The notes beneath the pieces were generated by a model. It did not search any database and had not been told where the DNA came from. It saw only the letters and a program-made list of their open reading frames with translations. Positions 15,526-17,925 of a DNA stretch of 25,410 nt are shown here, in pieces. Both the position numbers and the translations under genes were made by a program. Each line of letters begins with the position of its first letter. Within the stretch, counting starts at the first letter, position 1. The DNA comes from Gemmatimonadota bacterium (lineage in GTDB: Bacteria; Gemmatimonadota; Gemmatimonadetes; Gemmatimonadales; GWC2-71-9): contig JAEHDT010000197.1 in the NCBI GenBank assembly GCA_016880225.1, positions 1 through 25,410 on the forward strand, given 5' to 3'.

Positions 15526-17925
15526 TCAGCGTCGCACCGGTACGACGCCGGTCGCACGATAGAATTCGTCGAGCCGCTGCATGAACGCGCGGCGCTCCTC
15601 CGGGGTCCGGAAGAAGGAGAACTGACCGATCGCCCGCTCGACCTTCATGAGGTCGATCAGGAAGTCGTACACGGCGTTCGCGGCGGCTTCGTCGGAGGCG
15701 AGTGCCGCCTGCTGCGCGTCCAGCAGATTGATGATCGAAATGGCCCCGCGCGTGTATGCGTCCGTGACGAGCTCCAGGTTCTTGCGCGCGGCGTCCGCGG
15801 CGGCGCGGGCCTGCTGGATGTTGGCCCACGACGCGCCCCCGAGGTGCAGGGCGGCACGGATCTGTTGCGAGACGGTGCGGTCGAGGGCCTCGCGGTCGAT
15901 GGTGAGCCGATCGAGCTCGATGTTCGCCTGAGCGCGCGCGGCTCCGCGAGCGAACCCCGTGAAGATCGGAAGGGATGCTTGCAGCCGGAGCTTCCAGGAG
16001 TAGTCCGGCGGCAGCGCCAGGCTGATCGGCGGCCCCGACGGCGTCGGGATCGTGAACGGCATCGATCCCGCCCCGCTCCGGGAGAGGACGTCGCTCATCC
16101 CGCCCTGCAGCGACAGGGTAGGAAGCCAGAACGCGCGCCCGGCCGCCGTGCCGGCGCGCCGCTGACTGGCGATGGCCGCGTCGAGGGCGCGAAGGTCGGG
16201 CGAGGCCGCGCGCCCTTCGCTCACCATGAAGTCCCGGAACGCGCTGAACGTCTCCGGATTGCCGAAGTAGTCGACCAGGCGCGGGTCGCTCGTGATCAGC
16301 GTCGAGTCGCCGATCCCGATATCCTCGATCTCGAACGCCTCCTCAAGCGGCCGGTTCAGTACCCGGTTCAGCTCGAGCCCGGCGACCTGGACCTGGGCGT
16401 CGCTGCTGATCACCTGCTTGCGACTGGTCGCAAGCTCGCTCTCCCAGCGGTACACGTCGGCGAGGCTGGCGGCGCCCGTACGCTCGCGCAGCTCGGCCAC
16501 CTCAAGGTTCGATCGAGTCACTCGCAGGTTCTCGCGCTGCACGCGCGCGAGCGCTCGTGCGCGCAGTACGTTCAGGTAGGCCGTCGTGGCCTGCAGCACC
16601 ACCTCGAGCTCCGTGCGGCGACGGTCGGCTTCGCGGCGGGCCTGCTGATGGCCCGCGATGCTGTAGTTCGCCCACGCCTGATCGTCGATGATGGTCTGGG
16701 AGAACGACAGCCCGCTCTCGACGGTCCGCTCGGCCTGCTGACCCAGGCTGGCGCGGGCGATGGTATCGCGAATCATCGTTCCCGTCGCGCTCGCCTGGAC
16801 CTGGGGCAGGAGCCCGGCGCGGGCCCTGTGAACGCTCTCGACACCCGACGCCACGGCGCGCCGGGCCGCCTGGAGATCGAGGTTGACCCGGACGGCCTCG
16901 CGCGCGGCGCCGGCCAACGTCCAGGTCGGGCCCGCCGCCGGAGGGGCCGCGTTCAGCAACTCGGCTTCCGTGAGCGTGTTCCACCCGGGGGAGAACCCGA
17001 TGGCCCGGGCGGTAGCCATGTTGAGGGTGAGGTACGGGATCGAGGCGAGTCCCACCGGGAGGGTCCCCGCGTTCTCGCCGTTGAGAATTCGCCTGATGTT
17101 TCCGGCCACGCGGCGAGCGCGCCGGGCGAGATCGTCCTCCGGCGCGTACGACGCCAGGGTGCCACGCGCCACCTCCGCGCGTCCCAGATACGAGAATGTC
17201 GGCAGGCGCCTCGCGTTGAGGCCCGAGATCAGCGAATCGAGACCTGACGCCGGCAGCTGGTCGAGTGGAGCGAGGTATGCCGCGTCGGCGTCCGCGGGCA
17301 GGCTCCGGAGGGCATCGGCGGCCGAAGAGGTTACGCCAACAAACACGATGGATGCGCCGAGGGCCTGGACCAGAGCGGCAGCACGGTCGCGCAGCTCCGG
17401 AATCGCCACGAGGAGCCCCGGGTGGACGAGGACGACGAGCTTGCGGTAGGGCACGATGTCGTGGAACAGCCGGAGCGTCCGCGACGTGGAGTACGCGACG
17501 TCGATGTAGCTCAGGTTGGGGACGCCGCTCGTCCCGCTCTCGGCCGGGAGGCCTTGGACCGCGGCGTCCACGATGAGCGCGGCGATCGCCGGCTTCGGAA
17601 GCGTCTTGCGGTGTGCGAGCTCGCTCGACGCGATGGGACCGAGAGCGACCACCACGTCGACACCTCTGTCACCGAGCAGGCGATCGATGGCCGCTGTCGC
17701 GCCGGCGCTCGTCCAGTCGACCGCGAGCGCGTATTGCGGAGGGAAGTCAACTACTCGCTCGGTCCCGAAGAACGCGATGATCTCGCGCTCGAACGCCACA
17801 CGGCCGGAGTCGTTGAATGCGGACCGACCGTCGAGCACAATTCCAATGTGGCGCTGTGCGGCGCCGGGTCGCGGGACGGGGGCCAGCAGGAGCAGGGCGA
17901 CCGCCAGCCGGACAGCGGTAGTCAT
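15526..17925 (-). CDS. TolC-family outer-membrane efflux protein with an N-terminal ABC-type substrate-binding domain (799 aa)
   Basis: ATG at 17925 has AAGGGG upstream and a signal peptide follows. Residues ~25-320 resemble ABC_sub_bind (VDVVVALG, SGVPNLSY, IRRILNGENAGTLPV, LTLNMATARAIG). From TWTLAGAAREAVRVNLDL the sequence is a two-repeat OEP domain (LLPQV, FWLPTLSL, YTRGAISIINLLDAQ). Confidence 0.9.
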   Translation of the reverse strand: MTTAVRLAVALLLLAPVPRPGAAQRHIGIVLDGRSAFNDSGRVAFEREIIAFFGTERVVDFPPQYALAVDWTSAGATAAIDRLLGDRGVDVVVALGPIASSELAHRKTLPKPAIAALIVDAAVQGLPAESGTSGVPNLSYIDVAYSTSRTLRLFHDIVPYRKLVVLVHPGLLVAIPELRDRAAALVQALGASIVFVGVTSSAADALRSLPADADAAYLAPLDQLPASGLDSLISGLNARRLPTFSYLGRAEVARGTLASYAPEDDLARRARRVAGNIRRILNGENAGTLPVGLASIPYLTLNMATARAIGFSPGWNTLTEAELLNAAPPAAGPTWTLAGAAREAVRVNLDLQAARRAVASGVESVHRARAGLLPQVQASATGTMIRDTIARASLGQQAERTVESGLSFSQTIIDDQAWANYSIAGHQQARREADRRRTELEVVLQATTAYLNVLRARALARVQRENLRVTRSNLEVAELRERTGAASLADVYRWESELATSRKQVISSDAQVQVAGLELNRVLNRPLEEAFEIEDIGIGDSTLITSDPRLVDYFGNPETFSAFRDFMVSEGRAASPDLRALDAAIASQRRAGTAAGRAFWLPTLSLQGGMSDVLSRSGAGSMPFTIPTPSGPPISLALPPDYSWKLRLQASLPIFTGFARGAARAQANIELDRLTIDREALDRTVSQQIRAALHLGGASWANIQQARAAADAARKNLELVTDAYTRGAISIINLLDAQQAALASDEAAANAVYDFLIDLMKVERAIGQFSFFRTPEERRAFMQRLDEFYRATGVVPVRR

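Follow-up and report, generated by a model that had tools for sequence, protein, structure and literature searches.

A TolC-type outer-membrane factor with an N-terminal binding-protein domain in an RND efflux operon of Gemmatimonadota

Introduction

TolC-type ducts are generally treated as passive partners in efflux, opened by the adaptor, and a ligand-binding fold built into TolC would surprise the efflux specialist. Among binding proteins, LuxP-LuxQ, TorT-TorS and ChvE-VirA are known as binding-protein-dependent sensor kinases. Within the family PF04392 (ABC_sub_bind), the solved binding proteins VC_1101, SP1069 and CD0873 bind L-Phe, L-Trp and L-Tyr, respectively (PMC10443332; PMC6816091).

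The DNA considered here, referred to as the window, is a stretch of 25,410 nucleotides from a Gemmatimonadota bacterium (contig JAEHDT010000197.1 of the metagenome-assembled genome (MAG) GCA_016880225.1). On its minus strand, it encodes a protein of 799 amino acids (aa), here called VFT-TolC, in which a class I periplasmic binding-protein domain of the Venus-flytrap (VFT) type precedes a TolC channel in a single reading frame. The gene is the first of an operon for an outer-membrane factor, a membrane-fusion protein (MFP, the adaptor) and a resistance-nodulation-division (RND) pump. Judged from sequence and predicted structure, about an even chance is given to the reading that the flytrap is a ligand-sensing accessory module on the exit duct with a regulatory output.

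Domain architecture of VFT-TolC

The longest minus-strand open reading frame (ORF) of this region covers 15526..18027, and its probable start is the ATG at 17925, which has the sequence AAGGGG 8 nt to its 5' side. The whole gene therefore occupies 15526..17925 on the minus strand, as do all the parts given below, with the stop codon at 15526-15528. The protein begins with a Sec-type signal peptide, MTTAVRLAVALLLLAPVPRPGAAQ (17854..17925), read directly from the sequence and modelled with low pLDDT in the full-length AlphaFold2 (AF2) prediction. Because the peptide is without a lipobox Cys, the protein is of the TolC type rather than an OprM-type lipoprotein. The flytrap domain follows as residues 25-324 (16954..17853), a divergent subfamily of PF04392 supported by Pfam, profile matches, AF2, Foldseek and conservation. 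It is joined by a short linker, NAAPPAAGPTWT (residues 325-336, 16918..16953, pLDDT 78-88 in the full-length model), to the TolC/OEP channel domain of residues 337-770 (15616..16917), which is made of two repeats, each with two beta-strands and long alpha-hairpins. The C-terminal tail (15529..15615) is specific to the family and, from sequence conservation and the AF2 model, contains one helix and the motif FFRTxExRxAFxQRL.

In Pfam, the channel domain matches two OEP repeats (PF02321) with 157.7 bits in two stretches. Other channel profiles are weaker, with TIGR01844 and TIGR01845 matching the TolC part below their trusted cut-offs (NCBIfam TolC: 137.8 vs. 225 bits), and phmmer matched 1EK9 (E. 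coli TolC) and 5NG5 at E values of about 1e-11. DSSP assignment of the AF2 model gives strands at 375-384 and 400-413 and helices at 415-483 and 488-522 for the first repeat, and strands at 603-617 and 642-651 and helices at 657-725 and 731-766 for the second. Sequence, predicted fold and operon context all place the C-terminal part in the TolC family (PF02321, TC 1.B.17). For the N-terminal part, the Pfam match to PF04392 covers residues 76-309 and is marginal (28.4 bits against a cut-off of 25.9), and many homologues score under this threshold.

These assignments bear out the initial annotation, made by a model from the sequence alone, in which about 300 extra N-terminal residues with a type I binding fold were placed before an intact OEP domain. 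The coordinates of the extra domain agree with those found here by Pfam, profile, AF2 and Foldseek; the PPAAGP linker lies at 16927-16944; and the channel retains two PF02321 repeats and a full set of strands and hairpins in the AF2 model. The Pfam scan that had been proposed as a check, with ABC_sub_bind and two OEP repeats expected, returned both.

Predicted fold and packing on the channel

A profile built from 28 N-domains of the family matched the PDB entries 3LKV (E 1.6e-9) and 3LFT (E 7e-7). The AF2 model of residues 25-351 reached a pLDDT of 88.4 and a pTM of 0.83, and in Foldseek its best match was 3LKV (E 1.8e-17, target-normalised TM-score 0.76), followed by 3LFT and 6HNI. Profile and predicted fold together show the mature N-terminus to carry a folded class I binding-protein domain of the Venus-flytrap, PF04392-like type. 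On these data, the N-terminal part is a marginal member of PF04392 by sequence and a clear member by modelled fold.

The relation between the two domains was examined in a full-length AF2 model (pLDDT 85.7, pTM 0.73), in which the linker is ordered. An AlphaFold DB entry, A0A496PV29 (787 aa, 22% identical), superposes over its full length at a TM-score of 0.67, compared with about 0.45 for TolC-only entries. Given the ordered linker and this superposition, the two domains probably pack in a fixed geometry in the predicted structures.

Recovery of the same inter-domain geometry in two independent predictions, together with the ordered linker, is also what would be expected of a structural collar, in which the flytrap fold would bind no ligand and would form a rigid accessory around the equatorial belt of TolC. 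Such a collar might stabilise the trimer, set the spacing to the peptidoglycan or dock the adaptor, and would have its counterpart in the SPOR- or OmpA-like domains that other TolC proteins carry. It is regarded as a possible, if on balance unlikely, explanation and as the chief rival of the sensory reading. In its favour, accessory periplasmic domains recur among TolC proteins in AlphaFold DB. In opposition to it, the N-domain model lies nearer to the closed, liganded form of CD0873 (6HNI, TM-score 0.66) than to the open form (6HNJ, TM-score 0.52).

Apart from the flytrap family, AlphaFold DB holds other TolC-family entries with SPOR, OmpA-like or membrane-fusion-protein domains, as judged by automatic names only. 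Fusion of accessory periplasmic domains to TolC therefore seems to be a wider theme that has been little studied.

Conservation and a putative binding cleft

In an alignment of 70 full-length sequences from many phyla, column conservation averaged 0.56 for the N-domain and 0.59 for the TolC channel, and judged by this alignment, purifying selection acts on the N-domain as strongly as on the channel. Among the N-domain positions conserved in at least 95% of the sequences are D32, G96, K111, P112, P127, S133, G134, Y140, P176, P242, G255, R271, R272, G283 and P313, and D120, Q124 and N137 are conserved at 93-94%. Y217 is also among the near-invariant polar residues of the domain.

The inter-lobe cleft of class I binding proteins is lined by the loops that follow strands and by the starts of helices. 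When placed on the AF2 secondary structure, the near-invariant positions of the N-domain sit on such post-strand loops and helix starts: D32 follows beta-1, G96 follows beta-3, D120 and Q124 follow beta-4, N137 and Y140 lie on the first crossover strand, and R271 and R272 lie in the helix after the second crossover. Since near-invariant D32, D120, Q124, S133/G134, N137, Y140, Y217 and R271/R272 fall on cleft-type elements, the putative cleft, located from secondary structure and conservation, is probably still a binding site. The same pattern tells against a collar, as strong conservation falls on polar or charged residues (D32, D120, Q124, N137, Y140, R271 and R272), and their placement on cleft-type loops and helix starts is characteristic of a binding site rather than of the surface of a scaffold.

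The nature of the ligand can be approached through the solved relatives, for which only two ligand-specificity positions were available from the text of the papers on 3LKV, 3LFT and 6HNI. The side-chain ligand contacts of VC_1101 include Ala-246 and Tyr-262 (PMC6816091). In the HMM alignment, Ala-246 corresponds to the near-invariant A258 of the window protein, and Tyr-262 to the variable N276. Three family motifs kept in 3LKV and 3LFT, TDP, NVTGVSD and IDNT, are replaced in the flytrap family by (V)DA..Q, N-L-x-Y and TPL. With these motifs altered, the ligand of the conserved site is likely not a canonical aromatic amino acid, and the same alteration would be expected of a collar that had lost ligand binding altogether.

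Distribution and integrity of the fusion

Homologues of VFT-TolC are numerous. By a word-indexed search, more than 500 proteins that match VFT-TolC in length (about 800 aa) and in its pair of domains were retrieved, mostly from MAGs of Gemmatimonadales. When the N-domain alone was searched against 1.84 billion representatives of protein clusters defined at 50% identity, 531 clusters matched at E<=1e-30 and 1244 at E<=1e-10. Among the 150 top matches listed, nearly all are of about 780-830 aa with the domain at residues 30-370, and this PF04392 subfamily therefore exists essentially only as a TolC fusion.

A scan with one genome per species found 266 carriers in more than 10 phyla, the best 80 of which were used for the cross-phylum comparison of loci. 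Among these 80 are Gemmatimonadota, Desulfuromonadales, Thermodesulfobacteriota, several acidobacterial orders, Nitrospirales, Latescibacterota, Gammaproteobacteria, Calditrichia, Entotheonella and Bradymonadia. In 77 of the 80 loci, the flytrap is followed within a distance of about 30-130 nt by the TolC part in the same orientation, as would fit a single ORF. In the locus L091, the flytrap domain occurs without a long ORF and is probably degraded.

Within the phylum, the domain was present in 26 of 300 and 38 of 400 sampled genomes (about 9.5%). The ~800-aa frame is uninterrupted in all but three of the 38 carriers, one with a stand-alone flytrap (G127) and two with stop-broken copies (G217 and G388). 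In the latter two, the VFT-TolC copies contain in-frame TGA stops or are split into pieces (G217:C1:493982-495957 and G388:C8:125304-126186); they are probably pseudogenes, which fits a patchy distribution. Of the 11 further genomes sampled from the genus of the window, none had the fusion, and its distribution is therefore patchy at this level as well. The window's MAG, which is 65% complete, encodes one VFT-TolC gene and about five ordinary OEP genes. Three short matches of the search against cluster representatives, considered as further stand-alone flytraps, were set aside: P0140 is a contig-end fragment, and P0146 and P0154 look complete but lie on contigs of less than 1.6 kb that give no context.

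It had been a concern of the initial annotation that two genes might have been joined by error. The reading frame is continuous in the window and in every intact homologue, across hundreds of independent assemblies, complete chromosomes included, and a sequencing error, frameshift or gene mis-join is thereby excluded. The marginal PF04392 score, just above the Pfam cut-off, is what could have spoken for an artefact; taken together with the import role discussed below, this explanation retains a practically negligible probability, and its artefact part is refuted.

The expectation that similar fusions may exist in databases was borne out hundreds of times over, and some of them already carry labels that recognise the fusion. 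Several homologues are named 'outer membrane protein TolC/ABC-type uncharacterized transport system substrate-binding protein' in IMG. In Syntrophotalea (Pelobacter) carbinolica, Pcar_3003 (ABA90238.1 / Q3A069), which is 47% identical over 97% of the query, was named by its depositors 'periplasmic substrate-binding protein and efflux pump, RND family, outer membrane protein'. No description of a fusion of TolC with a binding protein, including Pcar_3003, was found in the literature searched. The fusion is thus recognised by annotation pipelines and in one curated genome annotation, with no literature description found.

Operon context and role in the pump

The two genes directly downstream of VFT-TolC encode the MFP (14415..15557, minus strand) and an RND inner-membrane pump of 1194 aa (10818..14402, minus strand), both assigned by Pfam, NCBIfam and locus comparison and both anticipated by the initial annotation. 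All three genes are present in 20 of 20 loci compared within the phylum, and the order VFT-TolC, MFP, RND is kept in 19; in the exception (L039), VFT-TolC is divergent from MFP-RND. The same order is found in most of the 80 cross-phylum loci, with MFP, RND, VFT-TolC as the order in Desulfobacterales. As also anticipated, a Pfam scan of the larger ORFs of the window revealed neither a permease nor an ATPase of the ABC type. In view of the adjoining MFP and RND genes and the lack of ABC importer genes among the scanned ORFs, the protein serves an RND pump as its exit duct and does not belong to an importer. Gene order and domain content show VFT-TolC to be the gene for the outer-membrane factor in a tripartite efflux pump of the RND type.

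A receptor function for an ABC importer was accordingly considered and rejected, given both the lack of ABC genes in the window and the tether to TolC. An importer encoded elsewhere could sit on a missing contig of the incomplete MAG, but a permease in the inner membrane would be out of reach for a domain that is covalently part of an outer-membrane trimer, and the 80 loci, though unscreened for ABC genes, carry pump genes. It is this role that shares the practically negligible probability given above to an artefact.

The tight and wide coupling of the fusion to MFP-RND operons and the conserved residues of the putative cleft would also suit a role in substrate capture, in which the flytrap would bind the pump substrate and hand it to the adaptor or RND protein, or concentrate it near the duct. 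The model for such a role would be a periplasmic chaperone, by analogy with CusF for CusCBA. In the AcrAB-TolC architecture, RND pumps take their substrate at the inner-membrane porter domain, far from the equatorial belt of TolC, and a flytrap held rigidly on TolC could not deliver a ligand there. Furthermore, the RND pumps have diverged (23-74% identity across loci) as against the near-invariant cleft residues, and a shared substrate is therefore not suggested. Substrate capture is considered quite improbable.

Linkage to a Ser/Thr kinase

A Ser/Thr kinase of 546 aa (18163..19803, plus strand) is encoded divergently, 237 bp upstream of VFT-TolC, with an N-terminal domain of about six transmembrane (TM) segments and a Hanks kinase domain. 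The intergenic region between kinase gene and VFT-TolC operon (17926..18162, 237 bp) is presumed to hold both promoters. The membrane domain is formed by the N-terminal 215 residues, with about six hydrophobic segments, and the kinase is without a sensor domain of its own outside the membrane. Assignment of the membrane domain to a named family failed, as it had no Pfam match and only weak MASE-like look-alikes in the Atlas (0.82-0.87).

In several related genomes, the two genes are joined. Six ORFs of 1190-1382 aa (P0047, P0055, P0058, P0059, P0118 and P0253) encode, in order, the 6-TM domain, the Ser/Thr kinase, a signal-peptide-like TM segment with an AxA site, the flytrap and TolC, a rare case of a cytoplasmic kinase and an outer-membrane protein in one reading frame. 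The N-terminal part of P0047 (1345 aa) is 47% identical to the window kinase over 468 residues, membrane domain included. Its gene (L050, 8001-12038, plus strand) is one frame, followed by genes for an MFP and an RND protein of 1195 aa, and a DUF4136 gene and a kinase with TPR repeats lie nearby, as in the window. The fused form is also present in independent assemblies of species genomes (L061, L063 and L064). As far as could be found, neither the kinase linkage nor the single-ORF kinase-VFT-TolC proteins have been noted anywhere.

Other arrangements keep the kinase as a separate gene. In G118, it lies in tandem directly upstream on the same strand, with its stop about 80 nt before the start of VFT-TolC. 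In G049, it abuts the RND gene, and in two further loci (L082 and L089) it is found 6-8 kb downstream. The stand-alone flytrap of G127 (363 aa, L140:8984-10075, plus strand), the only intact one in the 400 sampled phylum genomes, has a kinase gene at L140:6913-8574 (minus strand) that is divergent from it, 410 bp away, and whose product is 45% identical to the window kinase over 514 residues. A PAS-receiver gene lies directly downstream of this flytrap (L140:10125-11561, plus strand). With regard to the collar, the stand-alone copy and the kinase linkage are points against it, as they suggest a function of the flytrap of its own.

The 6-TM kinase family has 3-6 copies per genome, and none of the nine paralogues examined elsewhere in related genomes adjoins pump genes. 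With so few copies, and with paralogues away from pumps, the repeated adjacency of kinase and VFT-TolC is unlikely to be due to chance. The link is limited to a subclade of Gemmatimonadales whose RND proteins are 53-74% identical to that of the window, where it occurs in 7 of about 16 loci, plus G049. As a general feature of the fusion, it was rejected on account of this confinement.

The fused ORFs retain a signal-peptide-like segment at the junction, formed by a basic residue, 15-20 hydrophobic residues and then LQA-Q, AQA-H or ARA-Q. About 12 residues separate this segment from the first strand of the flytrap, and the linker of VFT-TolC is likewise of about 12 residues. From the dimensions of AcrAB-TolC, an uncleaved chain could not span the distance from the inner membrane to the equatorial belt of TolC. 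For this reason, it is inferred that the product of the fused ORF is cleaved into two proteins, presumably by signal peptidase.

A proposed sensory role and its weighing

In the proposed mechanism, VFT-TolC would be exported by the Sec pathway, its signal peptide would be cleaved and the TolC part would then trimerise. In the established TolC structure, the N-terminus is situated at the equatorial belt of the tunnel through the periplasm, so that three flytrap domains would form a ring outside the duct at the equatorial level. Each would retain a putative cleft for a polar ligand or a partner segment, and would act as a ligand sensor in the periplasm, attached to the exit duct, rather than as the receptor of an importer. 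The output of the sensor would be regulatory, on pump assembly or opening. In Gemmatimonadales, the flytrap could act on the co-encoded 6-TM Ser/Thr kinase as its sensor, in the style of LuxP-LuxQ or TorT-TorS. The initial annotation had put forward ligand gating, substrate hand-off and a non-efflux role as mere possibilities, and the kinase linkage was not part of it. Overall, the data speak for a binding cleft that has been retained and for regulation or sensing as the role of the domain, and they speak against ABC import.

A fuller version of this reading holds that the flytrap is a true sensor that signals to the 6-TM kinase in Gemmatimonadales and elsewhere makes pump assembly or opening dependent on ligand, with the kinase-TM-VFT-TolC ORFs as polyproteins split by signal peptidase. 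Taken with all its parts, it is held to be unlikely.

Several points weigh against a sensory role. The kinase-linked genomes are related and do not constitute independent samples. No kinase link was found in about 60 loci of other phyla among the best 80 carriers, and, being confined to one subclade, the link cannot explain the fusion in general. The kinase fusion itself may mean co-expression only, since an uncleaved chain could hardly reach the TolC belt. In the models, the ordered linker and reproducible packing fit a rigid structural collar equally well. The lining of the cleft by invariant residues is read from secondary structure. Finally, with the canonical PF04392 motifs altered, the amino-acid site of the family is not preserved as such.

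Neighbouring genes

The longest MFP ORF starts at a GTG and overlaps the last 32 nt of the VFT-TolC gene (15526-15557); its true start may be downstream. A short overlap or close spacing of the two genes would fit translational coupling. In the RND protein, about 140 aa (residues 151-292; window 13527-13952, minus strand) are inserted where the Pfam ACR_tran match breaks, at about model position 140. The insertion matches no Pfam family and is kept at 40-56% identity in the same Gemmatimonadales subclade that has the kinase link.

Directly downstream of the RND gene, a DUF4136 protein is encoded at 10242..10766 (minus strand). It is a recurrent operon neighbour in the Gemmatimonadales subclade, found near the operon in about ten related loci (L030/L076, L031/L073, L050/L061, L062, L064 and L075, and more weakly L090, L107 and L112). 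A gene for an FAD monooxygenase (8647-10245) was found near the operon in only one other locus (L100).

On the other side of the operon, the window encodes a second Ser/Thr kinase, of 877 aa with TPR repeats (19787..22420, minus strand), convergent with the first. Orthologue-like TPR kinase genes lie near the operon in several relatives, and 6-TM kinase paralogues elsewhere in related genomes are often 2-5 kb from a TPR kinase (L052, L053, L055 and L056), which suggests that the 6-TM and TPR kinases are a recurring pair.

Significance

Hundreds of bacterial lineages from soil, sediment and groundwater have kept a ligand-binding-type domain in the duct, and this conservation suggests that RND pumps are subject, at their outer-membrane end, to a level of control or specificity that is as yet unstudied. 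A concrete, testable hypothesis for the signalling partner of the flytrap comes from the kinase fusions and gene neighbourhoods, and if the reading as sensor and kinase is true, the exit duct would itself be part of a trans-envelope signalling device. Culturable carriers may exist, namely Syntrophotalea carbinolica and possibly a Desulfuromonas sp. whose record is not labelled as a MAG, which would make an experimental approach possible.

Comparison with known systems

VFT-TolC resembles E. coli TolC and other non-lipidated outer-membrane factors (PF02321, TC 1.B.17; 1EK9, 5NG5) in its two OEP repeats, its predicted strand and hairpin topology, its Sec signal peptide without a lipobox, and its encoding together with an adaptor and an RND pump. 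In comparison with E. coli TolC, it has about 300 extra residues, which form the predicted flytrap, and a family-specific C-terminal helix. The closest named protein, Pcar_3003 of S. carbinolica, has the same full-length architecture in a different phylum and is known by annotation. In the related Desulfuromonadales/Pelobacter loci examined, which do not include that of Pcar_3003 itself, no kinase match was found.

The N-domain shares its class I fold, as predicted, with the PF04392 proteins VC_1101 (3LKV, L-Phe), SP1069 (3LFT, L-Trp), CD0873 (6HNI, L-Tyr) and TrpX of S. suis, and keeps the C-terminal N..A..(I/L)G..P motif and the Ala at the position of VC_1101 A246. It differs from them in sequence (18-20% identity), in its N-terminal 50 residues, which lie outside the Pfam model, in the altered TDP, NVTGVSD and IDNT motifs, and in having, among the scanned ORFs of the window, no partner ABC permease or ATPase, which are usually encoded next to such proteins and whose partnership is the functional hallmark of the family. 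Whereas the described PF04392 proteins are free or lipid-anchored, the window domain is covalently fused to a channel (PMC6816091; PMC10443332; PMC9382623).

As in LuxP-LuxQ, TorT-TorS and ChvE-VirA, a flytrap is genetically coupled to a membrane kinase that has no large periplasmic domain. Unlike in LuxPQ and TorTS, the window kinase is a Hanks-type Ser/Thr kinase with a 6-TM N-terminus, the flytrap resides on TolC, and the linkage is a genetic one. The order kinase-TM-VFT in the fused ORFs is also that of receptor Ser/Thr kinases with an extracytoplasmic sensor. Finally, the SPOR-TolC, OmpA-like-TolC and MFP-TolC proteins of AlphaFold DB share with VFT-TolC an extra periplasmic domain on a TolC channel, but their domains, going by automatic names only, are peptidoglycan-binding or adaptor modules, in contrast to the flytrap carried by the duct described here.

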